This document shows, piece after piece, positions 1 through 27,817 of a stretch of DNA of 64,000 nt. The stretch covers positions 195,442-259,441 of the forward strand of contig JANQFH010000008.1 of the NCBI GenBank assembly GCA_028277945.1. The letters run 5' to 3'. Under the pieces are notes generated by a model, which searched no databases, was not told the DNA's origin, and saw only the letters and a program-made list of their open reading frames with translations. How positions within the stretch are numbered: the stretch's first letter is position 1; the number at the start of each line of letters is the position of its first letter. The DNA is from Oligoflexia bacterium (GTDB taxonomy: Bacteria > Bdellovibrionota_G > JANQFH01). The position numbers and the translations under genes are program-made.

Positions 1-83
1 GCTATAGTCTAAGCAATGAAAACTATGAGGACCTAGGGGGGCAGCTTCGCGACAAGATCGGCGATGCAAGCTGCCGACATTAG
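1..83 (+). CDS. 3' end of a secreted Cys-containing protein gene (5' part outside window); paralog of 8459..9051
   Basis: Frame 3 is open from the window edge to TAG 81-83: ..YSLSNENYEDLGGQLRDKIGDASCRH*. This aligns with LNDDNYDTLGDRIRTAIGDESCQKLEEIK* at 8962-9051. It occupies the same position, directly upstream of an MKRLW.. membrane-protein paralog. Confidence 0.45.
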   Translation, partial: YSLSNENYEDLGGQLRDKIGDASCRH

Positions 84-97
84 TAGAGAAGGTTGAT

Positions 98-481
98 ATG
101 AAAAGACTTTGGCGATACATAAAATTTGTTTTGAAGAGTCTCTTAATTCTTCTGGTCCTGGCAGGTCTGTTTGCTGGACTAGTGTTTTGGAGAACACCTA
201 TAGAGGATAGGCTTGTGGAAACTGTCGCACGTGAAAAGATAGCAGCCATTAAGCAATCCGTTGAGGAGAGAAGACAGGTCGGTTTACCGGAAGGCATTGT
301 TATTCAAGACGATGAGCCTGACGACACCAACGCCTTAGGTGGCTTTTGGGAATTTTGGTACGAGTGCGAACCGAGAGGGTCCCTGTTATTATACTTTGAG
401 GCGAGACGACGTATTCTTTTGTTTCCGTTGTTCAATAGGAAACAGGATATTAAGCTCATACGAGCGGCCTACGTTCCGTAA
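98..481 (+). CDS. small single-pass membrane protein, unknown function (paralog of 9048..9431)
   Basis: ORF track. N-terminal TM helix LLILLVLAGLFAGLVFW. Blocks shared with 9048-9431: MKRLW, VG(L/M)P(E/Q)G, FWY(E/D)C.P.G.LLL.F, LFNRK.D..LI. Confidence 0.6.
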   Translation: MKRLWRYIKFVLKSLLILLVLAGLFAGLVFWRTPIEDRLVETVAREKIAAIKQSVEERRQVGLPEGIVIQDDEPDDTNALGGFWEFWYECEPRGSLLLYFEARRRILLFPLFNRKQDIKLIRAAYVP

Positions 482-487
482 GTCCTG

Positions 488-2617
488 TCAAGAGCGCAGC
501 TGCGGGCCTGGTAGGCGGCTGTTGTCCTGGGTGCGCAGGGTGATCTTGTGCTGATCAAAGTACTCTAAAAAGGGTAGGGTGTACTTTCTTGAGGTGCGCG
601 TGAGCTGCTTAAACTCAGCCAGGCTCAGCATCTTGTTCTTATCAAAGTGATGTTGCAACTCAGTTCTGAGTTGGGCGATGGTTTCAGGGTGGGCATAGAA
701 CTCACCAGGTAGCCGCACCACCCGGTTTTCTCGCAGCAGCGACTTGATAAAACCAGCCGCCTTGGCCACAGGCACTTCCAACAGTTGTGCCAGCTCGCCA
801 ATATTGGGTGGGGTAAGCGCTGCCTTGGCAATAAGCGCTTCCATCTTTTCGGTGATCGAGGCGTTTGATGGCTGTGGCGCTGCTTGTTGGGCAAGTGGTG
901 GTGCCACTTTTTTGGAGGGCTCTTTGCCTTTGGTTTGATAGTCCTCGATCTCTTCGCCCACTAGCCTCAACCCACCATCGTCACTCTGTTGGATTTTTTT
1001 ATCCCTGTTGAGCTGCGTGAGCACACGTTTGAACACAGTTGTAGGCAGTGCCCGTCCCATCTTCACCCGCAGCGACTCTTGGTTCATGACTGGATCCTCA
1101 GGGTGGCTCTGTTGGTAGTGTTGCAACTCTGCAATGGCGCTGTCACACAGCTGCTGCAAACTGACCTCGCTTAGCAGTGGCGTTTGCCATTGTGCCGTCT
1201 CTGCCTGGTTGTCTTGCTGTTGCTTCTGCTTATGCTCCAGCGCTGCAACAATGCGCCCTTGCAGCAACTCCTCCTCCAGTGCCAAGGTAATGGTCTCCGG
1301 TGGGCGATCAAAGAAGCGCGCCAACTCTGCTATGGTACAACCGGCGCTGCCCGCACGTTGGATGAGCATCCCTGCAGCTACGGTTAGTTGCTCTTCATCA
1401 TCGATAAAATCTTGCAGTGTCTGCAGTTGTTGCCTCTGCCAACGACTACCGAGAAAACGTTTTTGCTCGTTGATCGGCACCAAGACTCTACCACCACCAA
1501 TGGTCGTCACCGGTGTTTGGCTACGCAGAATCACGGCATCGCCCAATTTCACAAAAACTGGCTCGTCTATTTTAATGAGCGCAAAGCTCTGCTCACCTGC
1601 CGGCAATTGTGGTTCAGCATAAAAACTCCGAAACAACAACCGCGCCCGGCTCTCAGCTGTGCCCCAGTGCAGTCGTACCCAGCTGTTGTGTTTGATGGCG
1701 TTGATATGGGGTAATGTCTTTATATGGACAAGCAATTGCGTGCTCGGTTGCACATTATCTGCAGTGGTAAGGCAGAACCCACGGTTGATTTCATGGGCAT
1801 CGGCGTGTTGCAGGTTGAGCGCCAAGCGCATGCCTGCCTCTCCCACCTGCAGCGGCTGCAGAAAAGACTCTATCTTACGTAGGGTAGTCTCCACCGCACC
1901 GGGAAAGAGTTGCAGCTTATCTCCCAGCCGCACTCTACCCCGGTAGCCGCTACCGGTGAGAACCGTACCAAAGCCTGGTTTAGAAAAGACCCGGTCCACA
2001 TAAAGGCGAAACGGCGCACTCAATCGGTGTGGCTTGGGTTTTGTTTTTGTGAGTTGTTGCAGTTGCTGCTTGAGTGCATCCACACCCTCACCGCTCACAG
2101 CACTGGTAGCAACAATCGGCGCCCCCTCCAGAGAGCTACCCTCTACCAACTTGGTAATCTCTTGGCGCCGCTGATCAATTAAGGTATGCCGTTCAGAGTC
2201 AGCCACACAGTCAATGCGGCTGATGGCAACCACCGCTTTATCAATGCCAAGCAGATTACAGATGTGCACATGCTCTACAGTCTGCGGCTGCACCCCTTGA
2301 TCTGCCGCCACCACCAACAGCAACAGATCCATGCCATAAGCACCGGCCACCATGTTCTTAATAAAGCGCTCATGTCCTGGCACATCGACAAATCCAAGCA
2401 GCCTGCCATCCTCCAGCGGCAGCGGCGCAAACCCCAGATCAATGCTAATACCGCGCTCCTTCTCCTGCGGCAGCTGATCGGTATCCGCACCCGTGAGCGC
2501 CTTAACCAGGGCACTCTTGCCATGATCAATGTGCCCCGCAGTACCGACAATCCACTGCTTCTTGAGCGTTGCTGCTTGCATAGCGGCAGTGATACTAATA
2601 ACCCATGCAATCGGCAA
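488..2617 (-). CDS. selB: selenocysteine-specific translation elongation factor SelB
   Basis: N-terminal GTPase region [48 protein letters not shown] is colinear with SelB. A long C-terminal extension is as expected for winged-helix SECIS-binding domains. The likely true start is M13 (MQAATLKK, about 2581), which removes the overlap with the divergent gene at 2605. Confidence 0.9.
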
Positions 2618-3144
2618 TGCTAAAGCTCCTCGTCCCCCTGCTATGGGCAGTCAGCCTCCTGCTGCCTACCTCAAAACTACTCGCCTACGAGGCCGATCCC
2701 TTTGATGAGTACAACATGGTCGAGTTTGCCAGTATGGGCCTGGGCACCATGCTCTTTGCCGGTGACTTTGCCGCCCCCTTCAAAGCGGGTGGCTCTGCCA
2801 ACATCAAGCTGGGTCTGCGTGTGGTTGGCCCCCTCCTCCTGGTGCCCACGGTAGGTGGGGCCATTGTTGGCCGTGAGGGGACCTCAGAGAAGGTCTACTC
2901 CTCCTATAGCCTGAGAGCTCGATTCCGCCTCACCCCCAAGCGCTTCCCCCTCAAACCCTACCTCGAGGCCGGCTTTGGCCTCATCACCATTATAGGTACG
3001 GACTTTCAGTGGCTCGCTGGCCTCGGCCTCGATATCCTCGTTTGGGGCTCTGGCAGCCTCGGCATTGAGACCTTCTTCCAACACGTCCCCGTTGAGGATG
3101 GCCTCATCGTCCCCATCCACTTAGCCTTCACCCGCTTTTTCTAG
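2605..3144 (+). CDS. small outer-membrane beta-barrel-like protein
   Basis: Signal peptide LLVPLLWAVSLLLPTSKLLA. Alternating Gly/aromatic-rich segments. C-terminal ..HLAFTRFF ends in Phe, as in OMP beta-signals. Confidence 0.5.
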   Translation: MQSAMLKLLVPLLWAVSLLLPTSKLLAYEADPFDEYNMVEFASMGLGTMLFAGDFAAPFKAGGSANIKLGLRVVGPLLLVPTVGGAIVGREGTSEKVYSSYSLRARFRLTPKRFPLKPYLEAGFGLITIIGTDFQWLAGLGLDILVWGSGSLGIETFFQHVPVEDGLIVPIHLAFTRFF

Positions 3145-3146
3145 CT

Positions 3147-3569
3147 CTAGTTCGCTAGCAGATCTCTCAAAATGGGTAGCGCTCTTTTTATTTGATCAAG
3201 TGTCGTCCAGGTTGGGTTGGCTGCTTTTGGAGATTCATAGCGTTGGTAGGCAGAGACATCTATACCTATTTTATCAGCAACCTTTTGTTGGGTGAGTTTG
3301 CTCTTAAGACGGCTCATCCGAACCAGCATTGCAATTTCCACCCTAGGATGAACCTTTATCCGCACAATATTTTTCCCTCGAACAGACTTCTTCGGCAGTG
3401 GAAAAATGTATTTGGAATCCTCTGGTTCACTTAGATAAAGATTGAGAACTTCTTCCATTCTTTCCTGCAGTTCCTTTTTGGTTTTAGCGTGTGTAAAACA
3501 GCCATCGAGCTCTAGTCCTTGAGCCCAATAGGCATTGCCTTCCTTATGAACTTTGAAATGATAGTGCAT
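3147..3569 (-). CDS. hicB: HicB-family antitoxin with C-terminal XRE-type HTH
   Basis: N-terminus MHYHFKVHKEGNAYWAQGLELDGCFTHAKTKKELQERMEEVL is HicB/UPF0150-like. C-terminal part LTQQKVADKIGIDVSAYQRYE is an HTH. It lies directly downstream of hicA. Confidence 0.8.
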   Translation of the reverse strand: MHYHFKVHKEGNAYWAQGLELDGCFTHAKTKKELQERMEEVLNLYLSEPEDSKYIFPLPKKSVRGKNIVRIKVHPRVEIAMLVRMSRLKSKLTQQKVADKIGIDVSAYQRYESPKAANPTWTTLDQIKRALPILRDLLAN

Positions 3570-3578
3570 GACGCTCTT

Positions 3579-3773
3579 CTATTTTCTCTTTAATCCTAGC
3601 TTTTTACGAATCGACATCTCAGTTCCCTTTGGCAAATCTTCGTTTGCATGTAATGGAATACTGACCGGTTTATGGCCTTCTTTTACAACAATGACATGAC
3701 TACCTGTCTGCCGATCCTTACGCCATCCCTCTTTTAGAGCCGCCCGCAATAGCTTCTTTCCACTTGTTGGCAT
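3579..3773 (-). CDS. hicA: HicA mRNA-interferase toxin
   Basis: 64 aa. GWRKDRQTGSHVIVVKEGHKPVSIPLHANEDLPKGTEMSIRKKLGL matches the HicA (YcfA-like) pattern GSH..(n)..P.H...L..GT...I. Confidence 0.85.
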   Translation of the reverse strand: MPTSGKKLLRAALKEGWRKDRQTGSHVIVVKEGHKPVSIPLHANEDLPKGTEMSIRKKLGLKRK

Positions 3774-3906
3774 TTATAGGCTATCCTCAATACTACAACT
3801 TCTATGCGGTAAAGTAAAGATACAATAATAAGTTATTGAAAATAATTTATAATATTTAACAACACAAACACAGTAAATAAGTGTACCAGCTGTTGATGTA
3901 AAGACA

Positions 3907-5727
3907 TCAAGTTTCTGTTATCGAAATCGGCACATAGCCAACGAGTTCTTTTGGGATGATGCCAACAGAGAGTTTGGCACATCGTTGCTGAAGAGGTTTT
4001 TCTTCATAACGATTGGTCACTAAGATACTCTTTTTGGCAATTCCGAGGCTTTCGATCAGGTCAAGACCGTTCTCTTGCTCTCCAGCAAGTTCATAGTCCA
4101 TGAGAAACAGCGACGACCCATTGTGTTCCAACTGTGAGCAGTCGACTTTAAAACTCTTGGCTGAGCGATAGTGCCGGATGTTCAAGTTCACTCCGTTCAA
4201 CTCCTGCTTAAAACGATAGTCCCATGTTTGGTGTACCGACTGGTCATCGTCAAGAACGATTGCATCCATCCCTTGACTCACCTGCAGGCTAGGTACGAAC
4301 CAGGAGGCCGGGGCGGTTCTCGGCAGCACAAGCGTCACGCAAGTACCCTGGCCAACCTCGGAGTCTATACTGAGATTGCCATTCCACGATTCAAGGGCCT
4401 TACGAGCCTGATAGAGACCAAGGCCCGAGCCTCCTTCTTTGTTATAGGTAAATCCGCGCTCACCGAGTTGGCTGAGCACATCTTTGGGAATGCCTTTACC
4501 ATTATCTCGAATAGTAATCCTGATCTTATCCTTGTCTGGAGGTTTATTATCGTTTTTACTAAGTCCAACTTCTATCAATCCTCCTTTGGGCATTGCCTCA
4601 ACGGCGTTGTTGACAAGGTTGGAGATGACTCGCTTAAAGGTCTTGGGGTCTATCTTGGAGAACAGTCCGTAACAGCTGGGTTCAAAGGTGTCCCGTATCT
4701 GCAAGTCTGTCCTCTCTTTAAACTGCATACGTTTTTCAGAGAGAACGCGACTGACAAGGCTGCTGAGTAGTACAGCCTCTCTTTGGCTGACCTCTGCTTT
4801 CTGGCTATCCATGGTGTCTTCTTTTCTTTTATTTAAATCATTGGCAACATCTCGAATTCTGTCGATAACACTGCGAATCAGCGTGCGTACCTGTTCAGGC
4901 AGATCAACGCAGATGTTGGTTACTGTGTCTAAGGCAGTCAAAGGAGATTGGATATCGTGTGCTACCTGTGTGGCGATCTCTCCCAAGGCCGCGTCCCGCT
5001 CCTTTTTCAAAAGCTCATGTTGCAGCTCGGTGATCTTTTCGCCTACCTCATTGATTGTCTTGTCTATCTCTTTTGATTCAGAGAAGAACAGTGGCGGCAC
5101 AGGTGGCGAGTCATGACGTCTGGCAAGGCCCTTGACGCGACTACGAATCGACAGGATTTCACTCCTAAAAATACGAAACTTTCTATGAGCAATGTAGGAG
5201 GATAGCAACAGTAGCACGGCAAGGGCGACTGTAGTGTAAAAAATAAACTTGTTTTGCAAAGAGCGTAGAAAACGGATGTCAGATACCAAAAATAGCCGCG
5301 CTTGAAGATGTTGTTTCCCGCCAACCATGGTGTGGAAGAAATCAGCCGTTTTATATATGAAGTCTTCGGAGTTTTGGTATTGATCTAGCCTGTTGCTTGA
5401 AAAGAAGCTGCATCCGGTATCGGTGCCGTTGCTGAATGCAAGGCACTGTTGCTCATTATCAAGCAAAAATGCCGCCTTGATATTGCTCAACCCTGAGAGC
5501 GTTTTGAAATACTCCTCTGCAGGCAGGTAGTCTGAATAACTCACCGATTTAGCGATAGCCCAGCGGGTCTGAGCAATAATGACGTCGAACTCCTTGAGGT
5601 AGTTGTCCTTTAGAATCTTCGGCACATAGTAAAAGGCAAGAAAGGCACCAAAGAGCAATAGCACAAGCTGACTACTTAAAATCCCAAGCAGGACTACCGT
5701 TGAAATCGATTGATGGTGCGGTTTCAT
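3907..5727 (-). CDS. hybrid sensor histidine kinase (cassette A)
   Basis: Two TM segments flank a periplasmic region of about 130 aa. H-box VAHDIQSPLTAL. N-box NLVNNAVEAM. G-boxes DNGKGIP and GGSGLGL. C-terminal receiver-like domain (IVLDDD .. LFLMDYEL .. ILVTNR .. IPK). Paralog of 22314-24110 and 35658-37532. Confidence 0.85.
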   Translation of the reverse strand: MKPHHQSISTVVLLGILSSQLVLLLFGAFLAFYYVPKILKDNYLKEFDVIIAQTRWAIAKSVSYSDYLPAEEYFKTLSGLSNIKAAFLLDNEQQCLAFSNGTDTGCSFFSSNRLDQYQNSEDFIYKTADFFHTMVGGKQHLQARLFLVSDIRFLRSLQNKFIFYTTVALAVLLLLSSYIAHRKFRIFRSEILSIRSRVKGLARRHDSPPVPPLFFSESKEIDKTINEVGEKITELQHELLKKERDAALGEIATQVAHDIQSPLTALDTVTNICVDLPEQVRTLIRSVIDRIRDVANDLNKRKEDTMDSQKAEVSQREAVLLSSLVSRVLSEKRMQFKERTDLQIRDTFEPSCYGLFSKIDPKTFKRVISNLVNNAVEAMPKGGLIEVGLSKNDNKPPDKDKIRITIRDNGKGIPKDVLSQLGERGFTYNKEGGSGLGLYQARKALESWNGNLSIDSEVGQGTCVTLVLPRTAPASWFVPSLQVSQGMDAIVLDDDQSVHQTWDYRFKQELNGVNLNIRHYRSAKSFKVDCSQLEHNGSSLFLMDYELAGEQENGLDLIESLGIAKKSILVTNRYEEKPLQQRCAKLSVGIIPKELVGYVPISITET

Positions 5728-5736
5728 TCTCCAAAC

Positions 5737-6675
5737 TCAAGAGATAGGGTGAAGCGCTGCATGTCGTGGTTGGCAAGCATAGCCCAGGCCCTGGGCACGC
5801 TTTTTGTTAATTTGAATCTCGTTCTCGGAAAAGAAGAGCTCTTGTAAACCATTGGAGAACGCCTGGCAGACAACTACGGAAAAAAATGGCAAGAGCTTTT
5901 GTTTGGTAAAGACAAATTCAACATGGATACGGCTTTTTCGCAGGCTATTCTCCAGCTCTCTAAGCGAGTGGTTTGGAAGGCTGGATTCATCAAGTTTCTT
6001 AATGTCATAGTCGGCTGGCGAAAAAGGCGGTATTTCTGTACTGCATACGGTCGGCACGACAAAGGGGAGAATATGCCAGAGGTTGCCACGGATATCTGTG
6101 GGTGGAGGGACATTGCGTGAGTCATAGAGGAGCAGAGCCTCTTTTAGTGCTTTATCCTTGGCTCTGGCCAGATCAAACGCCGCACCAAAACCGTAGCAAC
6201 GTTGTTTCTCAGCAGAAGCAATCTCAGTCATGACCACATGAATGGGAAGATCATGGGTGAGATAGAAGAGGCGAACGTTTTTGTCTTGGTTATGATCGAT
6301 TTCCCATAATACTTTGTTATAGAAGACGGATAGCAGAGCTTGATCGCGCTCAGCCAGTTCGATTAGCGCTGCTTGTCTTGCCTCATTACGGTTGAAGTGG
6401 CAACTCAGGCCGTTGGTGGTTGGCTTGACAGGTTTTGCGTAATAGTGATGTCGCTCCACACACTCCATCAGTGCCGTCAGTTGTGCCTGATAGGGATCTA
6501 AGGCGACACCCACGCCAGCTACCCGATCGTCTCGTCCCTGGGCGTAGACACGGTGCCAGGTGAGGTTGTTAAAGCGAATCTCTTTGTGGGCGAGCGTTTT
6601 GACGATTCCCTGCTGCTGTTTAAGAGTACCCGCAATAACGAGGTTAAGTCGAGCTCTCTGCAGCAGTTGTCCCAT
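5737..6675 (-). CDS. minimal YcaO-domain protein (cassette A)
   Basis: Two ExxER motifs in YcaO-like contexts: LTALMECVERH and TNGLSCHFNRNEARQAALIELAERDQALL. Paralog of 13582-14607. It is only 312 aa with no fused partner domain. Confidence 0.6.
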   Translation of the reverse strand: MGQLLQRARLNLVIAGTLKQQQGIVKTLAHKEIRFNNLTWHRVYAQGRDDRVAGVGVALDPYQAQLTALMECVERHHYYAKPVKPTTNGLSCHFNRNEARQAALIELAERDQALLSVFYNKVLWEIDHNQDKNVRLFYLTHDLPIHVVMTEIASAEKQRCYGFGAAFDLARAKDKALKEALLLYDSRNVPPPTDIRGNLWHILPFVVPTVCSTEIPPFSPADYDIKKLDESSLPNHSLRELENSLRKSRIHVEFVFTKQKLLPFFSVVVCQAFSNGLQELFFSENEIQINKKRAQGLGYACQPRHAALHPIS

Positions 6676-6688
6676 GGCCTACAGTGAG

Positions 6689-8248
6689 TCATGGAGTTGC
6701 CGGCAGAGCAGTTCTTGCCAGCCTCATATCCGCGAAATTGATGTTAAACTCCCACTCTGGCATGTGAGATAGATCGATTTTGGAGGAGGCATAAAAGGGT
6801 GTGGCCAGAAAATAGTAGGGAATAACAAAGCCCTCTTCTAGCATATAGCGGCTGATCTCTCTTGCCATTTGGATACGCTCTTTGGTGTTTCCTGTGGACC
6901 TGGTTGCTTCAATCATCTTATAGAGCCTGCCATCGTTAGGATCACGCACATAAAAGTCATCTGGACCAAAGTCTAGACGAAACACCAAACAAGGGTCTCC
7001 TGGTGGTATGGGTATAATACGGGACCCAAGATCAAAGCCTTGTCCCTGCAATCGGGCTTGTTTCATGGAACTACGAGATAGGGGGGTCATCTCAATTTGA
7101 AATCCATACGCTGAGAGATCATTGATTAATAATAGATCTCTCTTTGTTCTCTTATTCCAAACGTCTGGGTACATATATCTCAACGTCAAAGGCTCCTCTC
7201 TCAACCTGGCATAGATTGCTGTAAACTCTTTGGTCGCAGGTAGTGGGGCTTCAATGCGGCCACTAAAGCCGGGGGGAAAGAACTGATCAGAAGGAGCGTA
7301 AAGAAGTGAGTTACCGAATCTCTTGTGTTGGTGCTCTATGAGAGCTGCAGCAAAGGCAAGCCGTAGGGTTTTGTCCTTAAGGGGGCCTGTAATCGCATTG
7401 ACATAAACAATACGGCTCCAGTTACGTTTTGGTATAAACTGCTGAAAACGCTTTACCCTCTCTTGATCCTCTCGTTCTACTAGTCTATTGCGCTTATCTA
7501 AGAAGATGTCTGTTGTGCCTGCTAAAAGACGCTCCACAGCCTCCAAATCGTCACGCTCATAAACAATAACCGTCTGTGCTCTCTCGCCCCGTGGCTCAAA
7601 CCACTGCTCATGCCACTGCAACTTCACATAGTCCTTACGTTTCCACTCCACAAACTTGTAGGGTCCGCCTAACACAGGAAGCTTTTCTTTATGATAAGGC
7701 TCGTTCTCTGGATAGATCTTCCTCGGTACAACACCAGTACCTGGCATGGCTAGAATAAAGAGAAAGTACTCATAGGGGTTCGATAGGTTAAACTCCAAAG
7801 TGTGTTTGTCGATCATACGAATGGCTTTAGAATCTTTCTTTGGATCGACCCAATCAAAGAGCACGTACTCGGGCCAGTTAGTCTGTTTTCTCTTTAAGGA
7901 GAAGATAACATCTTCAACAGTGATAGGTGAGCCATCGTGAAAGAAGGCATCTTTTCTGATGGTGATCTCATAGCGTCTGCCACCATCATAAGAGCGCCAG
8001 CTCTGAGCTAACATGCCTATCAATGATTGGTCTTCGGCAATAGCAAAGAGGGTGATGGAGGTGCTGTTCAACATATACCAACCGCTGTTGGTCATATTTG
8101 CAGCTGGATCAAGAAAAGCTGGAAAATGATCCAGGTCCAACTTGATTGTGGAGCGGTCATCGCTTTGCAGCTGAGGCAGAGAACTGGCAAAACAGACAGC
8201 CGAAAGGAGTCCTAGGATGCCGACGGCTTTAAAAATCAATCTTTTCAA
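6689..8248 (-). CDS. periplasmic solute-binding protein, family 5 (OppA/DppA-like) (cassette A)
   Basis: Signal peptide GILGLLSAVCFASS. Family-5 signature region LAQSWRSYDGGRRYEITIRKDAFFHDGSPITVEDVIFSLKR. Length is about 520 aa. Confidence 0.85.
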   Translation of the reverse strand: MKRLIFKAVGILGLLSAVCFASSLPQLQSDDRSTIKLDLDHFPAFLDPAANMTNSGWYMLNSTSITLFAIAEDQSLIGMLAQSWRSYDGGRRYEITIRKDAFFHDGSPITVEDVIFSLKRKQTNWPEYVLFDWVDPKKDSKAIRMIDKHTLEFNLSNPYEYFLFILAMPGTGVVPRKIYPENEPYHKEKLPVLGGPYKFVEWKRKDYVKLQWHEQWFEPRGERAQTVIVYERDDLEAVERLLAGTTDIFLDKRNRLVEREDQERVKRFQQFIPKRNWSRIVYVNAITGPLKDKTLRLAFAAALIEHQHKRFGNSLLYAPSDQFFPPGFSGRIEAPLPATKEFTAIYARLREEPLTLRYMYPDVWNKRTKRDLLLINDLSAYGFQIEMTPLSRSSMKQARLQGQGFDLGSRIIPIPPGDPCLVFRLDFGPDDFYVRDPNDGRLYKMIEATRSTGNTKERIQMAREISRYMLEEGFVIPYYFLATPFYASSKIDLSHMPEWEFNINFADMRLARTALPATP

Positions 8249-8458
8249 GTTGTGTACTTCTAACTTAGGTTTTAGTGTTCTCTCTAATAATATGAAGAAC
8301 TTCTGTCAACGGGTACTTTTCATCAGCAACTCAACCAACACAAATGTGTTTCATTTTTAGACAAGTTGTTTCGTAAGACGACACTTAAATGATGGTTCAA
8401 TCTAGCTTCGAGAGCTTGACCCTGTCTATAAAATAAGCAATCATCCTGGGTTAAGAGT

Positions 8459-9051
8459 ATGAGGCGATGGTTTTATGAGCTAACCATATTCGGAACCATC
8501 CTTACCAGTTTGAATGCCTATGCAGTGAGTGAGGAGTGTGCGGCCTTTTTCCAGAACAACAACATTTATCCTGGTGCCGATTGTGAATTGTCGTGTGCAA
8601 CTTTGCCGACATCAATGGCTACGTTTGGTTGTCCCGCTCAGTGTCGCGAATACTGTCGTTCCCGGACATTAGCGACAGAACCCTCCAAATCGAATGAGCC
8701 TTTAGATAGCTTGCCAATGGATGAAGAAGAGCGTCGGCAGCGCCTTAAGGAGTTTGCTATAGAAGAGTTCAAGAGTGAAAACCGATGCAACGCCTTGGCC
8801 AATATTGTCGATGAAGCCTCCAGGCTCATTGGGAGTGAGGAGAACCCCTCAAAGACCATGCTTGAGGATCTTAAAGAGGTGCTAATTGGAGAAGGGCTTC
8901 ATGAAGGTCGAGGGAAGGGGCCATATTTTGCTGGTAATGTCTATGGCGCTTTGGTGACGTCCTGAATGATGACAACTATGACACATTAGGGGATAGGATC
9001 AGAACAGCGATTGGAGATGAGAGTTGTCAGAAACTAGAGGAAATCAAATGA
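8459..9051 (+). pseudogene. secreted Cys-rich protein, apparently frameshifted near its 3' end
   Basis: ORF 8459-8965 has a signal peptide and many Cys, and stops at TGA 8963-8965. Another frame is open from 8938 and encodes LNDDNYDTLGDRIRTAIGDESCQKLEEIK* (8962-9051). That sequence aligns with the C-terminus of the paralog at 1-83. Its stop overlaps the ATG of the next gene (ATGA at 9048-9051). Confidence 0.5.
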
Positions 9052-9431
9052 AAAGGCTTTGGAAGGTCGCCAAGGTATTACTCTTCATTTTCTTGTTCCT
9101 AGTCGTGGTGGGTTCAGGTTTTGTAGTCGCTCTGATTATGACTAAAGATCAGGAACTCAAGGTTGCTCAGGAGGCGGCCTATGAGGTAGTGACCTCCATT
9201 ATGTCCTCCAAAGATAGACAACGTGAAGTTGGAATGCCTCAAGGTGTGGAACTTATCGACACGGATCCGGAAGATATTGATATATTATTTAGAACTTGGC
9301 AGTTTTGGTACGATTGCAAGCCTGAGGGCGTGCTTTTGTTGGAGTTTTTTCCCAAACGGGGGATTTGGATTTTTCATTTGTTCAACAGGAAAAAAGACCT
9401 AGAACTGATTACAGCAAAATACATAAAGTGA
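9048..9431 (+). CDS. small single-pass membrane protein (paralog of 98..481)
   Basis: ATG at 9048 gives MKRLWKVAKVLLFIFLFLVVVG.., matching the start of the paralog. The track start at 9024 is a TTG extension. Confidence 0.6.
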   Translation: MKRLWKVAKVLLFIFLFLVVVGSGFVVALIMTKDQELKVAQEAAYEVVTSIMSSKDRQREVGMPQGVELIDTDPEDIDILFRTWQFWYDCKPEGVLLLEFFPKRGIWIFHLFNRKKDLELITAKYIK

Positions 9432-9716
9432 TGGCACTGAGCAAAAGAGACAAAAACAAGATTAAAAGCGTCTAGCTACCTATCTACCTCGTACAACCAT
9501 ATTCTTGGCAATTTTGGTGGAGAATTTCTGGCTTGATCACACCAACTTCAAATTTACTTAATAATTTTAGATGGTTATTATTAAATCTGTTATTCCGGCA
9601 AAAATATCGGCATATTTCTCTTAAAAAATAACTTCCCAAATTTATAACCATTTGTTATAAAATGTTATATATGAAAAATTCATCGGTAATAATACCGGCA
9701 TTTTCGACTTAAATCC

Positions 9717-10907
9717 ATGTCTCATCCAAAACCAGAGTCTCCAGCGCTTATGGAGCCGATGCTTCCGGCTGCAGGACAATCCTCGCAACTCGAGGATCTT
9801 GCTGTTGATCTCATTGCCAAGGGCAGTAGCTTTCACAGCCTTTTGCCCACGAACCTACAGACAGGCATTGCGGATCTGGTGCGCTCGATGAACTGCTATT
9901 ACAGCAATCTCATCGAAGATCATCACACCCACCCCCGCGACATTGATCGCGCTCTAGCAGATGATTTCTCTACTGAACCAAAAAAGAGAGCCTTACAATT
10001 GGAAGCCAAAGCGCACATTGAAGTACAACGCCTCATGGATCATGGAGGCATCCCCGCCAATCCAACGACGTCTACATTTATTACCTGGATCCACCGGAAG
10101 TTTTGTGAGCGTTTGCCCGACAATCTTCTATGGACTGAAAACCCTGACAGTGGAGAACGTCTTCGCATCCACGCAGGCAAGCTCAGACAAACTAATGTCA
10201 TAGTTGGTCGCCACCTTGCGCCTGAGGCAAAAAATCTCCACGCTTTTCTGGCTCGCTTTCAAGAGGCCTATGATCTACAGCGCCTTTCCAAAGTGCAACA
10301 GATCCTCGCAGTCGCTGCGTCACATCATCGGTTACTGTGGATCCACCCTTTTCTCGACGGCAACGGTAGGGTGGCACGTCTCTTCTCGCATGCGCTCTTG
10401 TTGCATCTGGGTATTGGCAGTTCCCTTTGGTCAGTATCACGCGGTCTAGCCCGTAGCGTCGACGACTATAAAAGCATGCTCATGCAGGCAGATCAGCTGC
10501 GCCGCAATGACCATGATGGTCGTGGTACGCTCTCCCAACAAGGGCTGATGGATTTTTGTGGCTTTTTCTTGGCCACATGTCTTGATCAAATTGAGTTCAT
10601 GCGCTCTCTGTTAGAACCTAAAGAGCTTCTAAATCGTGTTGCTGTTTATACCGAAGAAGAGATGCGTGCCAAGAGACTTCCAAAAGGGAGTCTGGCGCTA
10701 TTGCGACATGCCATACTGGTTGGCGAGATTGCGCGCCATGAGCTCTCTGGCATTACGGGTTACAAAGAACGTCAGGCTCGTAATGTATTAAAAGAACTAT
10801 TAGCTAAAAAACTCCTTTACTCAGCAACTCCACGTGGCCGCGTGCGTCTGGGTTTTCCTATTGAGGTGGTAGAGCGCTGGTTCCCAACCCTCTACCCTGG
10901 AGTCTAA
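9717..10907 (+). CDS. Fic family protein (AMPylase-type)
   Basis: Canonical Fic motif HPFLDGNGRVARLFSHALL. About 400 aa with a C-terminal wHTH-like tail. No adjacent small antitoxin gene seen. Confidence 0.9.
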   Translation: MSHPKPESPALMEPMLPAAGQSSQLEDLAVDLIAKGSSFHSLLPTNLQTGIADLVRSMNCYYSNLIEDHHTHPRDIDRALADDFSTEPKKRALQLEAKAHIEVQRLMDHGGIPANPTTSTFITWIHRKFCERLPDNLLWTENPDSGERLRIHAGKLRQTNVIVGRHLAPEAKNLHAFLARFQEAYDLQRLSKVQQILAVAASHHRLLWIHPFLDGNGRVARLFSHALLLHLGIGSSLWSVSRGLARSVDDYKSMLMQADQLRRNDHDGRGTLSQQGLMDFCGFFLATCLDQIEFMRSLLEPKELLNRVAVYTEEEMRAKRLPKGSLALLRHAILVGEIARHELSGITGYKERQARNVLKELLAKKLLYSATPRGRVRLGFPIEVVERWFPTLYPGV

Positions 10908-11045
10908 TAAGCGCTCTGTCACGATAACAAAAGGATAGACCACCCATAGTGTCCCCAGGGGCCGATTTGCAACTAGCCAGCGCATGCGATAGACTAGATC
11001 TAAGCTAAGACAACGAGATTTTTGAACATCTTCGCGGAGATACGC

Positions 11046-11987
11046 ATGCAACCAACCCCCCGTTTGTGGGTTTTGCCTCTCTTGATACTCTCTCTTCTAG
11101 CCAGTCCACTGATGGCCCAGGGGCCCGTAGAGGAGCTGGAGAAACAGCAAGAGGATACCCGTCTCTACCTTGAGACCATCGACATGCTCAAGGACAACTC
11201 CCTGGAAAATCAAATCAAAGGCTGGGAGAAGTTCCTCAAGGAGCATCCCGACAACTACTTTCGTGATGAGATCGAGGCCAACCTCGATAACATGAAGGCA
11301 CGCCAGGAGATCATTGCCAGAGAGCAGGAAGAGCAGGATTCTCGACGCTACTTTGCAACCGTGGAGCGGGCCGCAGACAAACCCGTAAGCGAGCAGATCC
11401 CTATCTGGGAGAAGTACCTCAAAGAGAACCCAGACTCACTCTTTGCCAACGAGGCACGCACCACCCTAAACCGCCTGCGTCTACAAGCAGGGCCTGCTGT
11501 GGCACCAGCCCAACAACCCCTGCCATCATCGCCACCCCCTCCAGCGCCCCTACCAACAGCTCCGCCAACCGTCGAGACCACCGCCAAAGATCTGACCCTG
11601 CAGGATGATGGGCTGCTCGATCCCAATCGCGCCCTCTTTCTCGCCTCCGTCCCAGGTCTCATTGTTCCAGGCCTTGGCCACTTTTATGCCGGCAACTATA
11701 CTATTGGCGGAGTCCTCGTCGGCCTACGCGTAGGTGGCTTAGCCCTCATGGGCTATGGTTTCTTTGATGAAAACCGCTTAGCGCTGATTATCCCCGGCAG
11801 CCTGGTGGCTGGCTTCTCCTACGTTCTCGATGTGGTCATGGCGCCCATCCAGGTACGCAACCGCAATCACAGCCTCGAGCCACTCCCACCCTTAGAGGGG
11901 AGCCAACTCAGACCTCTCGACCAAGATCACCCCTTCGCCAAGGCAGAGCAGGAGCTGCTCACCCTCACTGTGGGCTTCTCCTTTTAG
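11046..11987 (+). CDS. secreted repeat protein with Pro-rich linker and C-terminal membrane segments
   Basis: Start at MQPTPRLWVLPLLILSLLASPLMAQG (signal peptide). Duplicated W(E)K(F/Y)LKE(H/N)PD.. repeats. The linker PLPSSPPPPAPLPTAPP is followed by hydrophobic GLGHFYAGNYTIGGVLVGL. Confidence 0.55.
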   Translation: MQPTPRLWVLPLLILSLLASPLMAQGPVEELEKQQEDTRLYLETIDMLKDNSLENQIKGWEKFLKEHPDNYFRDEIEANLDNMKARQEIIAREQEEQDSRRYFATVERAADKPVSEQIPIWEKYLKENPDSLFANEARTTLNRLRLQAGPAVAPAQQPLPSSPPPPAPLPTAPPTVETTAKDLTLQDDGLLDPNRALFLASVPGLIVPGLGHFYAGNYTIGGVLVGLRVGGLALMGYGFFDENRLALIIPGSLVAGFSYVLDVVMAPIQVRNRNHSLEPLPPLEGSQLRPLDQDHPFAKAEQELLTLTVGFSF

Positions 11988-12329
11988 GCTGGATAAAACG
12001 GGACTTTGATCTAGTCTGACCTAAGGTTTCTGGCCCCATACTTGGAAGAGCCACGGCACACTCATAAGAGTGCGGGTATCCTGAGACAAAGTCTTTAAGG
12101 TTGTAACGATTGCAAGGATACTTCTTCATCGTGATATTTGTCGAACTCAAGCAAAGCCCTGCCTTCGCCCTGTAATCAAAACAAGTTGGTCGTATAGTGA
12201 CCATTTTGTTTCCATAAAAGACAATCAGCATTCTATCCAACGTTAGGATCAAGACAAAGTTAATCACTCCACTCCCTTCGTGAAGGCTAACAACTGATTA
12301 CTCTTCGGCTAATAATGGTCTGGCTTTCT

Positions 12330-12345
12330 TGGCACACAATTTGCT
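12330..12345 (+). promoter_or_regulatory. sigma-54 (-24/-12) type promoter upstream of short ORF 12393
   Basis: TGGCACacaatTTGCT. GG at 12331-12332 and GC at 12343-12344 are separated by 10 nt, matching TGGCAC-N5-TTGCW. It lies about 48 nt upstream of ATG 12393. Confidence 0.6.
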
Positions 12346-12392
12346 TTTTTTTAAGCCAGCCACGTCACCTTCAATTTGTTATGGGAGGAACT

Positions 12393-12515
12393 ATGAAGGA
12401 CGCAAAAAAGACAAAACGTCAACAGTCTAAGTCGTCAAAAAAAATCTTTTCCCCTATTAAGGACAAGCTGTTAGATACAGCTATGTCGACTATCACATAT
12501 GATGTAACTGGCTAA
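12393..12515 (+). CDS. candidate precursor/signal peptide, 40 aa (cassette D)
   Basis: MKDAKKTKRQQSKSSKKIFSPIKDKLLDTAMSTITYDVTG. RBS GGGAGG at 12383-12388, 4 nt before the ATG. A sigma-54-type promoter lies upstream. The HExxH gene starts 93 nt downstream on the same strand. Confidence 0.5.
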   Translation: MKDAKKTKRQQSKSSKKIFSPIKDKLLDTAMSTITYDVTG

Positions 12516-12608
12516 GTAGGCAACGAAAATAAGACAACGAAGCTAAGTATGGGAGTGGATGGTCTCTGCTCCCGTACCTTCAAGCCAGGCATATGAGAGA
12601 TCGATTTA

Positions 12609-13601
12609 ATGTGTTTAGAATATCATTCCGCCCCAGGAAAATTATCACCTTTTGTGCTTCGAAAAAATTTTCAAGGATATTTGGTTAAAAGCGCTATTTC
12701 CTACATTAATGAAGTTCAGTCGTCTTTAAAATTGGACCTCAACCACATAATATTAAAGTTATCCAGCCTAGATCAAAACCAGAAATTTTCCCCCTCTATC
12801 TATACAGGGTATCACATACTACAGTCAGCTTACGATAGTCAGAATAAAACCCTTGTGTTGGATGCCCTTCATTTCTTGGTTCAGTATTGCAATGATAAAG
12901 GTGGTAACAATAACATTGATTATTCAACTATACTTACAGAACCATATGAGAATCATTGTATAGACACTTTTCGAAAATCGAACCCTAAAGATGACTTCGG
13001 CGTGCCAGCTTTTGACGTTGTAGAAATGTTTCCAATACTGAATGTTAAAAAATATAAAATTCCTCCGTCTAGCCTTAAAAAGGCTGAAGAAATATTATCG
13101 CTGATTGATATGGATTTATGGAAAGAGTATCAAGCTTACGTTTCTATCTTAAAGATCTTCCAAGGAAAGAGTCTTCAAGGTGGAACAAGTCTCAACTGTT
13201 TTGGTACGGTATACCTGAGAATGCCTGAGGATTCCGAACATCCGGTACTCTACTTCCTGGAACATATTGTGCATGAAACCTCCCATTTGCATCTCTATGC
13301 ATTAGCCGGAGACAGAGACCTTGTTAGAAACGATTCAGCCTCTGTTTATGACTCGCCAATACGACACGACAAACGGCCCATTATTGGGGTATTTCACGCT
13401 ACGTTTGTTTTGGCTCGCTTAGTCCGTATATTTCAGCGCTACCTAAATCATTTTAGCAATGACTATCCAGAAGGAACTACCTTCTACAACAGAATAAGCA
13501 GAGACTTCAAAACCGGATACTCTATATTGAAAGAAAATTGTCTTTTTACAACGCTTGGGCGACAAATTTTTGATTCGTTAGATGATTGTACGAAAATTTG
13601 A
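12609..13601 (+). CDS. HExxH-motif protein (RiPP-associated HEXXH-domain type; possible peptide hydroxylase or peptidase) (cassette D)
   Basis: HIVHETSHLHLY is followed by KRPIIGVFHATFVLAR. The same two blocks occur in paralog 26946-27779 (HELGHHYL .. KRPLFGIYHAAFAEA). Confidence 0.6.
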   Translation: MCLEYHSAPGKLSPFVLRKNFQGYLVKSAISYINEVQSSLKLDLNHIILKLSSLDQNQKFSPSIYTGYHILQSAYDSQNKTLVLDALHFLVQYCNDKGGNNNIDYSTILTEPYENHCIDTFRKSNPKDDFGVPAFDVVEMFPILNVKKYKIPPSSLKKAEEILSLIDMDLWKEYQAYVSILKIFQGKSLQGGTSLNCFGTVYLRMPEDSEHPVLYFLEHIVHETSHLHLYALAGDRDLVRNDSASVYDSPIRHDKRPIIGVFHATFVLARLVRIFQRYLNHFSNDYPEGTTFYNRISRDFKTGYSILKENCLFTTLGRQIFDSLDDCTKI

Positions 13602-14607
13602 AAGGAACGACCCTCTTGGAAATACCGCGTTTGGCAAACTACCTATCAAAAAACTGGTACGTGCTGCAGTCTTCCCTGATCGCTTTTTTGTAGGCAAAGC
13701 AGGTATCAAGCTTGTCAATTGGCAAGGAAATAATCAGTACCTTTGTGGCTTCTCATGCAGCAGACAACCGGCTATTGCCGAAAATGTAGCTGTTTTCGAA
13801 CTCTGTGAACGCTTGACAGCAAAGTATGAATTTCAATCTTTTCTGGGCACGAATATGAATACTTTCAGAGCGTTTACCTGGCCCGATGGGAATCCAGCTA
13901 GAGTGACAAAATCTCAATTATTCCTTGGTCCAAATCCATTTTCCCAATTTGGACAAGAGGCAACTGGCCTAGGTTTTGGCCCTGATTATCATCAAGCATT
14001 AAATCACGCTATTCTTGAATTGTTGGAGAGGCACATCTGCGCAGGTCTTTGGTATGAAGCAAAATATAGGCTATGCAAGGCAATCGACAGAGTATCTTTA
14101 GACTCCTTTGACATTTTCTACTATACCCTCCACAGACCGAAGATACCATTTGTTCTAGCCATTATATACTCGAATGAACTTGAGGTGCTTTCAGTCGGCC
14201 ATGCAATAAGATCTACGTTTGAGGAGGCGAAGGAAAAATCCTACTCCGAAGCAGTGATGCTGTTAGATTGTGTTCTCCACAAGGATAACGGTATCTGTAC
14301 CAATTTAAGAACTAAAAATCGTTTGCTTTCTCAAAGAGGTCCCTTAGCAAAAGAACGATTCCAACAATTTAACGATCTGACAGTAAACGTGGCAGCAGCA
14401 AAAAATATCCTAAGCCGATATTTTTCAATATCTGAGATTACTGCGGCGGTGCTTGGCACTAATGACGATATCGAAATTATTCAACTTTTCCGGGATAGAA
14501 ACTTCTGGTCTCTACGAGCACTTTCGAAGAAGGTGGCTACCTTGGCAGAACGTCGACAATCGAATCGATATTCAGAAAAACAAAAGATTCTGGACCCTTA
14601 TTGCTAA
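13582..14607 (+). CDS. minimal YcaO-domain protein (cassette D)
   Basis: ExxER motifs VAVFELCERL and ATGLGFGPDYHQALNHAILELLERH. Overlaps the HExxH gene by 20 nt. Paralog of 5737-6675. Confidence 0.6.
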   Translation: MIVRKFERNDPLGNTAFGKLPIKKLVRAAVFPDRFFVGKAGIKLVNWQGNNQYLCGFSCSRQPAIAENVAVFELCERLTAKYEFQSFLGTNMNTFRAFTWPDGNPARVTKSQLFLGPNPFSQFGQEATGLGFGPDYHQALNHAILELLERHICAGLWYEAKYRLCKAIDRVSLDSFDIFYYTLHRPKIPFVLAIIYSNELEVLSVGHAIRSTFEEAKEKSYSEAVMLLDCVLHKDNGICTNLRTKNRLLSQRGPLAKERFQQFNDLTVNVAAAKNILSRYFSISEITAAVLGTNDDIEIIQLFRDRNFWSLRALSKKVATLAERRQSNRYSEKQKILDPYC

Positions 14608-14619
14608 GATCAGCATACA

Positions 14620-15888
14620 TTAGAGCTTGTCGGAAATAAGGCTATATCTTTTGGCCGTGCTCCACAACAACAGTGTTGAAGCAAGCCCCACAATGCCAGA
14701 AAGACCAATTAACTTGCCTATGGCTGGATCGGCTTTCATAAGTACAGTGAAGATTACCATGGACAGTATATACCCGACTCTGCCATAAGCCTGTCCTTTC
14801 GATATTGAGTAGGTAAACCGATCTTGGCTAAATTGTGACTGAATCTTGTTTGAAAACATTATAAGGGAAACACCGTACAGGATACCGATAATGATCATTA
14901 GGGCAATAAAGGAGTCTCGAGAAGTTCCTCCAGCAAGAATTAGTGTTAGACTTAGAGCTACAAGAAGAAGAATCAATTTATGAATACTACGGAAGTACAC
15001 TTGAAATGCATTTGGGAAGAGAGTAATTGCGGTTAATGCTAGGAGGAATCCAAAGTAGATAGACGATGGACCTGAAAGTATTCGTGTAATTCCAGAAAGA
15101 TGTTTTGATGCTGCTAGCGATTGCATAAGAATAAAGGCAACCGCTCCAAAAGCTAAATTTGTCAAAAATAGAAACTGATTGTTCCATTTTAGCCAATGGT
15201 CGTCTTTTAAATCTATGATACGTTGATTTGCATTGTTCTGAAAAACATCAACCGATACTTGTTGCATACTGGTTATCTTTTTCATAAAGGATAGTAAAAG
15301 GAAGAGTCCAAGTAGAGAAATAAGGTAGGTTATGGAGTTTACGATGCAGACGACAGACCATCCACTAGTTAGCAGCAACGCTGCGACTGAAGCACTTACC
15401 ATGTTTACTCCACGATTTGCAGCATTCGAGAACGCTAAAGCTCTAGGTAGAGGGAAAAAATTATTCCTATCCAGGAAGATAGGAATAATGGTGGTCAGTT
15501 GTCTTGTTATAAGTGATAATGTACGCATTACTATCATCAGAGCGAGAAATAAGCCGTAAAATAGGTGCCTTGGAAGATATGATATTAAGATAGGCAGAAT
15601 GGTCAGTCCCATTAGGATAAATTCGATACATAGGGCGTAAAAAATTCTATCCTTGATATTTATAATGCGATCAATGTATTTTCCAAGAAAGGGTGCTAAA
15701 CCAATTTGCAGTATGGCATCTGTAGAGAACAGAATCCCCGATAACAATATTCCCGAACTATCGTCAAGAAAGAGTGCAACTGCGAAGAAAAGTAAAAGGC
15801 TATCCCCAAGTTTGGAAATAATCGATAAAGAAAGATACCCCCAAATAGGCGCCTTTGTCATGTTGTGGATTGGCTTTTCTCTATCCAT
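14620..15888 (-). CDS. MFS-type transporter (cassette D)
   Basis: About 12 predicted hydrophobic helices. Loop LGKYIDRIINIKDRI is in the MFS motif-A position. The start is uncertain (15888 or M10 at 15861). Confidence 0.7.
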   Translation of the reverse strand: MDREKPIHNMTKAPIWGYLSLSIISKLGDSLLLFFAVALFLDDSSGILLSGILFSTDAILQIGLAPFLGKYIDRIINIKDRIFYALCIEFILMGLTILPILISYLPRHLFYGLFLALMIVMRTLSLITRQLTTIIPIFLDRNNFFPLPRALAFSNAANRGVNMVSASVAALLLTSGWSVVCIVNSITYLISLLGLFLLLSFMKKITSMQQVSVDVFQNNANQRIIDLKDDHWLKWNNQFLFLTNLAFGAVAFILMQSLAASKHLSGITRILSGPSSIYFGFLLALTAITLFPNAFQVYFRSIHKLILLLVALSLTLILAGGTSRDSFIALMIIIGILYGVSLIMFSNKIQSQFSQDRFTYSISKGQAYGRVGYILSMVIFTVLMKADPAIGKLIGLSGIVGLASTLLLWSTAKRYSLISDKL

Positions 15889-15902
15889 ATACTATCATCA
15901 AC

Positions 15903-17643: not shown

Positions 17644-17648
17644 GCTAT

Positions 17649-18392: not shown

Positions 18393-18395
18393 CTT

Positions 18396-25611: not shown

Positions 25612-25616
25612 TTGTG

Positions 25617-26933: not shown

Positions 26934-26945
26934 TATGATCTCTAT

Positions 26946-27779: not shown

Positions 27780-27817
27780 TCATCATGCCAATTTTTTATT
27801 ACGTTTTAGTTGCCTCA

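Follow-up and report, generated by a model that had tools for sequence, protein, structure and literature searches.

A minimal YcaO between a substrate-binding protein and a hybrid histidine kinase: a candidate precursor-less copy of a rare, putative peptide-sensing module

In peptide pheromone circuits of Gram-positive bacteria such as ComQXPA, Agr and Rap/Phr, a single locus holds the gene of a small precursor together with a tailoring enzyme and the cognate receptor kinase. Their enzymes are prenyltransferases or membrane proteases and not YcaO proteins; Phr pro-peptides carry Sec signal peptides and the family-5 substrate-binding protein (SBP) OppA recognises them, and in Rap/Phr the SBP feeds a transporter instead of a kinase. 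We examined an operon of an Oligoflexia bacterium that recalls this arrangement, namely cassette A, in a stretch of 64,000 nt from contig JANQFH010000008.1 (assembly GCA_028277945.1; this whole stretch is hereafter the window), in which a small YcaO gene lies between the genes of a family-5 SBP and a hybrid histidine kinase (HK). From this examination, cassette A is tentatively read, with slightly less than an even chance of being correct, as a precursor-less copy of a rare four-part module in which the small YcaO (mini-YcaO) modifies a Sec-exported peptide while the SBP and the hybrid HK sense the product. Compared with a peptide quorum-sensing locus, the window copy has no precursor and no export route, and in contrast to the pheromone circuits nothing like a feedback promoter, sigma-54 or other, was found in the upstream region of cassette A. 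The ancestral module, with a short open reading frame (ORF) that carries a signal peptide, may qualify as a locus for precursor, enzyme, export and receptor.

On the receptor side, CBP of V. cholerae is a family-5 SBP, and ChiS and LuxQ are hybrid kinases. Kinases that are activated by an SBP and encoded beside its gene are known (PMC8050422, PMC11113362, PMC12704726). Similar to LuxP-LuxQ, TorT-TorS and CBP-ChiS (PMC8050422), cassette A possesses an SBP gene next to a kinase with two transmembrane (TM) segments and a C-terminal receiver, and no transporter genes. These described pairs differ in having no enzyme gene between SBP and HK, and their ligands are small metabolites or sugars.

Work on YcaO proteins has dealt almost exclusively with the production of antibiotics and toxins or with the modification of housekeeping proteins. 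The azoline-forming YcaOs McbD, LynD/TruD and SagD/BalhD possess an insert and an E1-like, Ocin-ThiF or RRE (recognition element) partner, both of which the mini-YcaO clade lacks. Loci for thiazole/oxazole-modified microcins (TOMM), linear azole-containing peptides (LAP) and cyanobactins carry an FMN dehydrogenase, a leader protease and an ATP-binding cassette (ABC) exporter, whereas the mini-YcaO loci carry none of these and the gene is placed in a sensor operon. TOMM and LAP precursors are rich in Cys, Ser and Thr; the candidate substrates of the mini-YcaOs are not, and they carry Sec-type signal peptides. Some YcaOs act on proteins with no peptide gene nearby, including E. coli YcaO on uL16 (PMC13063428) and methanogen YcaO-TfuA on McrA (PMC5589413), and the window resembles these cases in its intact YcaO without an adjacent peptide gene. 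However, those enzymes are full-length or TfuA-associated and thioamide-forming, with housekeeping targets, whereas the relatives of the mini-YcaO carry an adjacent short ORF.

Precursors of RiPPs (ribosomally synthesised peptides modified after translation) with Sec or lipoprotein signal peptides have been described for other families of enzymes, as in bufferins and DAG-RiPPs (PMC13056109). There, cytoplasmic modification is followed by export through general secretion, a route that would explain the missing exporter here, but the enzymes are MNIO (DUF692) proteins and not YcaOs, and no SBP-HK coupling is involved. The sequence-only reading of this DNA had called a YcaO in a sensor operon odd, and the literature bears this out: full-text searches combining YcaO with histidine kinase, quorum sensing, RiPP, substrate-binding protein or HExxH returned no description of a YcaO-SBP-HK module, and no NCBIfam model covers the mini-YcaO clade. 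The parts are all of known kinds (YcaO, family-5 SBP, hybrid HK, small protein with a signal peptide). What is new is that they occur in a conserved combination, that the YcaO is minimal and has no partner, and that the candidate substrates are of the Sec type.

Recurrence of the module and its short open reading frame

The ORFs and Pfam matches agree with the SBP-YcaO-HK order first read from the sequence, including the gaps of 13 nt between SBP and YcaO and 9 nt between YcaO and HK (Table 1). When 1.84 billion representative proteins were searched exhaustively with HMMER, just 14 hits reached E<1e-3, and the mini-YcaO clade is therefore very rare. A word-indexed homologue search with the YcaO returned only the protein itself and its profile version added few, while scans of GTDB-species genomes with two clade alignments found no relative, so that either the clade is absent from the species representatives or the patterns were too narrow. 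The taxonomy of the clade rests on one NCBI name, a Bdellovibrionota metagenome-assembled genome (MAG; locus L011, GCA_035292885.1).

Whether the triad recurs elsewhere had been raised in the sequence-only reading, and it was found to do so. The YcaO adjoins an SBP of the same family in 10/10 other readable clade loci, and a kinase is visible in eight of them (L002, L005, L006, L007, L009, L010, L011 and L013), the contig ending first in L003/L004 and L012. Pairwise identities of the YcaOs and SBPs co-vary (Mantel r = 0.88 over seven loci; 1 of 5040 permutations, the identity permutation, reaches this value), which indicates that the genes were inherited together. The SBP-YcaO-HK arrangement thus goes beyond a chance juxtaposition. 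Beside the triad SBPs, neither an ABC permease gene nor an ATPase gene was found in the relatives checked, L005, L006, L009 and L011 among them. Likewise, no ThiF/RRE partner was identified in the 312-aa protein, the window operon or the gene tables of L003-L013, and neither TfuA nor an FMN dehydrogenase, leader protease or ABC exporter was present in any clade locus.

In 6/6 relatives with a visible flank, the module includes an ORF of 49-67 aa with a charged N-terminus followed by a hydrophobic stretch of 15-20 residues. This short ORF lies directly upstream of the SBP (L003, L007, L009, L011) or directly downstream of the YcaO (L005, L006), and a strong Shine-Dalgarno sequence precedes five of the six. 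By eye, the short ORFs of L005 and L006 have N-terminal and core motifs in common (MKK..W...VAIL, TR.V and SI..VL) even though their YcaOs are 30% identical, which argues that the short ORF is a real gene. The sequence-only reading had stated that a precursor gene conserved nearby in relatives would speak against its own interpretation, and such a gene is what we encountered. Its suggestion that the YcaO works without a local precursor consequently does not hold as a property of the module, and stands at most for the derived copy in the window.

For that copy, each absence reported earlier (a short ORF with a ribosome-binding site (RBS), GG-N10-GC, HExxH and an exporter) was upheld by the scans. 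Neither 8249-8458 nor the 133 nt downstream of the kinase (3774-3906) holds a short ORF that has an RBS or starts like a signal peptide, and nothing convincing as a displaced short ORF with a signal peptide was found in the intergenic regions of the window. Both strands of 8249-8458 lack GG-N10-GC, the same interval has no sigma-54-like site, and no HExxH enzyme, major facilitator superfamily (MFS) or ABC gene occurs within or adjoining the operon. The TTGACA noted earlier is present, though the promoter scan gave it no properly spaced -10; TAGACA-18-TAGATT (8428-8399) was the sole minus-strand match in the upstream gap, and promoter-like sites were not enriched relative to shuffles. Neither a response regulator nor an Hpt gene was found near cassette A in the window.

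Upstream of the relatives' modules, sigma-54 promoters were plausible in L005 and L006 only, with none in L003, L007, L009 or L011. It was noted that L011 encodes an NtrC-type sigma-54 response regulator (6920-8350) 1.6 kb upstream of its short ORF. Of the seven loci visible in full, four also encode a GNAT-type acetyltransferase alongside the module (L005 9161-10015, L006 9242-10156, L007 5764-6402, L011 14680-15438). Those of L005 and L006 are tandem-GNAT-like and 32% identical to each other, and none lies next to cassette A.

Properties of the enzyme and the receptor pair

We sought to characterize the mini-YcaO against YcaOs of known structure and function. Its match to Pfam PF02624 reaches 58.3 bits against a cut-off of 25.7, with the alignment confined to profile positions 112-228 of 325. 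The clade profile matched MJ1094 best among solved YcaOs (1.6e-20), followed by TruD, MusD, the M. kandleri YcaO, McbD, LynD and E. coli YcaO, while the SagD-type TIGR03604 (45.2 bits; cut-off 219.25) and McrA-type TIGR03266 (19.2 bits; cut-off 365) models were not reached. Clade members measure about 285-320 aa, with one of 364 aa, and the mini-YcaO is some 80-100 residues shorter than azoline-forming YcaOs. In the alignments it lacks the canonical insert of 60-90 residues between the first 'EaiER' ATP helix and the 'TNGlA' motif, and the three-subdomain alpha/beta YcaO fold is complete.

Residues were mapped through an alignment with McbD, and their roles were taken from the McbBCD structure paper (PMC6395948). 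The window protein keeps E71/E74 (McbD E57/E60), T87 (T148), H93 (H154), E106 (E167), E109/R110 (E170/R171) and K175/E179 (K257/E261), as well as R75; all three long helices thus retain acidic residues that coordinate Mg/ATP. In McbD, E167 coordinates Mg and its replacement in E167A almost abolishes activity, H154 stacks on the adenine, and the Pro-containing extreme C-terminus is catalytically important, as it is in BalhD (PMC6395948). Among 13 clade members, which are 18-47% identical to the window protein, no variation was seen at G89, E106, E109, R110, A176, L280 and P310, and almost none at E71. The last residues of every member read [HM]P[ILV]x (...LHPIS in the window), a tail that resembles the PxPxP motif yet is not one, with P310 as its invariant residue.

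Within its sub-clade, the window protein has also diverged least (it averages 24.3% identity to the outgroups, its sisters 19.9-22.4%). With its fold complete, its catalytic residues kept and its divergence the lowest, the window YcaO is not degenerate; the loss of ATP-binding residues contemplated in the sequence-only reading is not what the alignment gives. The nearest outgroup of canonical length, P0011, belongs to a C39-peptidase/nitroreductase/ThiF/YcaO cluster, and the longer P0016 to a thiopeptide-like cluster. Since these outgroups sit in classical azoline or thiopeptide clusters, azoline-forming cyclodehydratases appear to be the ancestors of the mini-YcaOs, which would have lost both the partner protein and the insert on the way. 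The insert may have been the partner interface.

The hydropathy of the kinase predicts TM1 at about residues 7-40, a periplasmic domain of roughly 115 residues (about 41-156) and TM2 at about 157-181, followed by the H-box His257 and a complete HATPase_c at 360-471. Residues 479-606 gave no Pfam hit at E <= 0.01 and no PDB match by sequence. Their AlphaFold2 model (pLDDT 88) had RcsB, the receiver of the hybrid kinase Sln1 and TorR as its top Foldseek matches (probability 1.00, TM-score 0.60-0.68), and all three paralogous kinases of the window share D493-495, D544, T571 and K593. Judging from this model, the C-terminal 128 residues are a receiver domain. The L009 orthologue has a Pfam Response_reg match, and the orthologues in L005, L006, L007 and L011 are 38-44% identical through the C-terminal extension.

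The N-terminus of the cassette A SBP (SBP-A) is hydrophobic, no ABC permease or ATPase partner lies nearby, and the protein is 50-51% identical to the triad SBP of L011. Cassette A thus shows the features of an SBP-kinase pair, with an exported SBP near the kinase, no cognate ABC permease or ATPase and a two-TM sensor. By analogy with the described pairs, SBP-A would be expected to dock on the kinase and to control its activity.

Proposed mechanism and competing explanations

In the mechanism that we propose, the ancestral module would consist of a gene for a small exported peptide, a family-5 SBP, a minimal partner-less YcaO and a hybrid HK. The cytoplasmic, ATP-dependent mini-YcaO would activate a backbone amide of the small pre-peptide, and the product would most likely arise by cyclodehydration (azoline-type), as the nearest relatives of the clade are azoline-forming cyclodehydratases. 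The peptide's own N-terminal signal sequence would then direct it through Sec across the inner membrane, so that no dedicated exporter would be needed. In the periplasm, the SBP may bind the modified peptide and dock on the periplasmic domain of the kinase, setting a His-Asp phosphorelay that runs via the receiver of the kinase itself, as in LuxP-LuxQ, TorT-TorS and CBP-ChiS. The short-ORF peptide would accordingly be the YcaO substrate and its exported product the SBP ligand. In the window copy the peptide gene would be gone, with enzyme and receptor intact, and the peptide would be encoded elsewhere in the genome or the orphaning would be recent. The main support for a tailoring role of the YcaO comes from the window itself, where paralogous cassettes of peptide, tailoring enzyme and receptor occur in cis.

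We then considered how the peptide gene could have been lost. The best tblastn match in the window to residues 1-18 of the L011 short ORF is the start of the SBP-A gene (8248-8195), and in a start-anchored comparison of possible ORF starts in the window and twelve loci, this start ranked first of 4171 against the L011 short ORF (BLOSUM62 score 46, the next being 32). Signal-like N-termini in this comparison averaged -1.9 (sd 10.2, n = 288), and the SBP of L011 itself carries a different signal peptide. The chances are about even that an in-frame deletion joined the signal-peptide codons of the short ORF to the SBP-A gene and removed the peptide core, an event that would also account for the short 210-nt gap. 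A tblastn search with six short-ORF peptides from relatives found no core remnant anywhere in the 64-kb window.

Several observations weigh against the precursor-less module. The fusion argument draws on just 18 signal-peptide residues, and the links from YcaO to peptide and from peptide to SBP are both ones that we infer. The short-ORF cores have no common motif and cannot be aligned between clades; they are not rich in heterocyclisable residues, with one Cys in 4/6 and none in 2/6. A canonical signal-peptidase site occurs in 2/6 only, which means that some of the peptides may stay membrane-anchored, and a peptide of 25-40 residues in the Gram-negative periplasm is not obviously an intercellular signal. 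For the enzyme, activity cannot be assumed given the missing canonical insert, Leu182 replaces McbD Q264 as the sole differing position among the mapped residues, and the adenine-stacking His varies among sister sequences. Moreover, the window YcaO bears no sign of relaxed constraint despite the absence of its presumed substrate gene, an observation as compatible with a substrate encoded elsewhere, or with a different one, as with recent loss.

One such remote source could be cluster D (12330-15888), for whose product cassette A would be the receptor and perhaps a co-processing enzyme, the two half-sets forming one circuit. The gene contents are complementary (precursor, enzymes and exporter in D; SBP, HK and enzyme in A) and lie 4 kb apart, which is the whole of the support for this speculative pairing beyond the facts that cassette B unites all such functions in one operon and that the intact, conserved YcaO of cassette A fits a substrate encoded elsewhere. 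We consider it unlikely, as the YcaO and SBP phylogeny by which the sequence-only reading proposed to examine A/D pairing gave no specific link. Against the mini-YcaO profile the second YcaO reaches 39.9 bits, fewer than generic YcaOs do (50-110 bits), the two YcaOs of the window align at E 0.008 over 24 residues, and SBP-A shares 18-19% identity with SBPs B, C and D, compared with 50% to the YcaO-linked SBP of another organism. Furthermore, the closest triad relative, L011, has its own short ORF and no HExxH/MFS cluster nearby, four unrelated genes separate A from D, and an SBP-D-like fragment at 16035-16108 suggests that cluster D formerly had its own SBP. The earlier proposal of an orphan receiver for a peptide made elsewhere may hold for this genome, whereas its connection to cluster D lacks phylogenetic backing. 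A different substrate is the basis of another explanation, in which the target of the mini-YcaO is a protein (the not yet exported SBP, the kinase or another), as happens with uL16 and McrA (precedents without a nearby peptide gene; PMC13063428, PMC5589413), and the relatives' short ORF is an unrelated sensor component. This would suit an enzyme that is intact without a local short ORF, has no RRE or E1-like partner and is wedged between SBP and HK at gaps favouring co-production; an SBP with the short ORF's signal peptide, if that is what it carries, may also have inherited a recognition element. It nevertheless seems improbable, given that the short ORF is present in all six relatives and directly beside the YcaO in the two differently ordered loci (L005, L006), and that the nearest relatives of the clade are peptide cyclodehydratases. 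The SBP was also considered directly as a substrate, but this found no support, as no Cys/Ser/Thr motif specific to YcaO-linked SBPs was seen and PPGDPC occurs only in the close clade.

The YcaO could also be a non-catalytic relic, or a regulatory or scaffolding module that binds ATP or protein and tunes the kinase. It is truncated relative to all characterised YcaOs by the 60-90-aa insert, its Pfam match spans one third of the profile, and the lost Q264 equivalent, the variable adenine-stacking His and the absent local substrate gene point the same way. Yet the fold is complete, the Mg/ATP glutamates and R110 are invariant across the 13 sequences, the HP[IL]x tail is kept at the extreme C-terminus, a part that azoline-forming YcaOs require, and there is no rate acceleration, which together make this explanation quite improbable. 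Least probable is an ordinary nutrient or metal sensor, in which the SBP-HK pair detects an oligopeptide, nickel or an opine-metal complex and the YcaO is a passenger with an unrelated role. Nutrient SBP-HK pairs are common (PMC8050422), and the best NCBIfam matches of SBP-A are SapA, NikA, GsiB, CntA and OppA, but all of these fall far under the cut-offs. A passenger would also not be expected to stay by the same SBP and HK in 11 loci, with proteins down to about 17-18% identical, nor to co-diverge with the SBP.

Returning to the precursor-less module, a bolder and rather doubtful extension is that it represents an undescribed Bdellovibrionota-like class of signalling, in which the smallest known YcaOs, free of partners, modify a Sec-exported mini-protein that becomes the SBP ligand driving a phosphorelay, and the window has just lost the signal gene. 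If this were true, amide-backbone chemistry would be tied to signal perception, and a YcaO-dependent peptide signal would operate in the Gram-negative envelope. It would also provide a minimal partner-independent YcaO scaffold, useful in enzymology and engineering, and a second enzyme family whose RiPP precursors use the general secretion pathway.

Other cassettes and features of the window

We found three kinases and four SBPs as paralogues in the window, distributed over further cassettes (Table 1). In each of the other cassettes, a sigma-54-like promoter is combined with a RiPP-type enzyme and with a short ORF that has an RBS in front of it and encodes no signal peptide, and an MFS exporter is encoded in two of them (within the operon in B, convergent in D). 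The occurrence of several paralogous cassettes with different enzymes (aKG-HExxH, LanM-like) suggests a wider repertoire of modified-peptide sensing in the lineage, and each peptide-receptor pair of the window is a ligand-receptor hypothesis open to direct testing.

Table 1. Features of cassette A and the other cassettes in the window, and gene order in the clade loci
Feature	Locus	Position	Strand	Remarks
Family-5 SBP (peptide/nickel/opine type), 519 aa	cassette A	6689..8248	-	Pfam SBP_bac_5 1.8e-35; TTG start; N-terminal signal peptide
First 18 SBP codons (MKRLIFKAVGILGLLSAV)	cassette A	8195..8248	-	possible surviving 5' end of lost short ORF, in-frame fusion
Mini-YcaO, 312 aa	cassette A	5737..6675	-	Pfam YcaO 1e-15; cytoplasmic, without signal peptide or TM segment
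Hybrid sensor histidine kinase, 606 aa	cassette A	3907..5727	-	HATPase_c 3.4e-26 and weak HisKA match
210-nt upstream region	cassette A	8249..8458	-	shared with divergent gene 8459-8965; TTGACA at 8304-8309(-)
Cassette B	window	22314-28032	-	complete peptide-signal-like operon
Sigma-54-like site	cassette B	28017-28032	-	
Short ORF, 34 aa	cassette B	27818-27922	-	
aKG-HExxH peptide hydroxylase	cassette B	26946-27779	-	TIGR04267, 3e-11
MFS	cassette B	25617-26933	-	
SBP	cassette B	24097-25701	-	
Hybrid-type HK	cassette B	22314-24110	-	
Cassette C	window	35658-40366	-	no adjacent MFS gene
Sigma-54-like site	cassette C	40351-40366	-	
Short ORF, 27 aa	cassette C	40175-40258	-	strong RBS
LanM-like protein, 363 aa	cassette C	39039-40130	-	matches C-terminal part of DUF4135/LanM only
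SBP	cassette C	37483-39042	-	
HK	cassette C	35658-37532	-	
Cluster D, producer-only	window	12330-15888		without SBP or HK of its own
Promoter, perfect sigma-54 TGGCAC-N5-TTGC	cluster D	12330-12345	+	
Short ORF, 40 aa	cluster D	12393-12515	+	
aKG-HExxH peptide hydroxylase	cluster D	12609-13601	+	3e-18
Second YcaO, 341 aa	cluster D	13582-14607	+	independent origin
MFS exporter, convergent	cluster D	14620-15888	-	
Short ORF, 49 aa	L011	9713-9862	+	GAGGAGG five nt upstream; missing from gene calls of MAG GCA_035292885.1
Gene order	L011 (Bdellovibrionota bacterium MAG)			short ORF, SBP, YcaO, HK
Gene order	L009			short ORF, SBP, YcaO, hybrid HK
Gene order	L003/L004			short ORF, SBP, YcaO, contig end
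Gene order	L007			divergent HK, then short ORF, SBP, YcaO, GNAT
Gene order	L005, L006			YcaO, short ORF, double-GNAT-like protein, SBP, hybrid HK
Gene order	L012			SBP, YcaO, contig nearly ends
Gene order	L002, L010, L013			SBP C-terminus, YcaO, kinase start

Cassette A is neighboured by HicA/HicB, which adjoin the kinase on its downstream side (3147-3773, -), by SelB and by the divergent gene for a 168-aa secreted Cys-rich protein (8459-8965, +). The latter was considered as a precursor and rejected, as it has no family match and lies beside the triad in no relative. Two paralogous small membrane-anchored proteins (98-481 and 9024-9431, both +), 39% identical and without a family, flank the region of SelB, HicAB and cassette A. 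Toxin-type genes were noted as scattered in the region, comprising HicA/HicB, a Fic protein and a HipA kinase (3147-3773, -; 9717-10907, +; 50651-51907, +). No Rfam family, riboswitch or other RNA, matched in window positions 1-16000.

Upstream of the cluster D MFS gene, the stretch 15903-16108 includes an 80%-identical copy of the cassette B promoter region (28015-28145). It also holds an inverted 74-nt fragment (16035-16108) that is 84% complementary to the SBP-D coding sequence (43501-43574), and this intergenic stretch looks like debris of cassette rearrangement. A further group at 41114-44740 (+) encodes an MFS protein, a 267-aa protein without a family and an SBP (43334-44740) apparently without a signal peptide, and has no kinase. 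The start region of this SBP is duplicated 4 kb downstream (43254-43346 resembling 47260-47355), the copy being truncated. The SBP-D-like fragment and the duplicated promoter and start regions indicate that the cassette loci are in flux.

It was also noted that a five-gene operon at 16150-22077 (-) has almost no family matches. In one of its products, of 594 aa, a C-terminal RES domain occurs together with a weak match to MbnB/TglH/ChrH, an MNIO RiPP enzyme type (E 0.005). At 52634-57569 (-), three large ORFs (522, 398 and 710 aa) without a Pfam match lie behind the sigma-54-like site TGGCATTTTCTTTGCA (57554-57569), and a pair of 54-nt direct repeats is located at 55946-56081.

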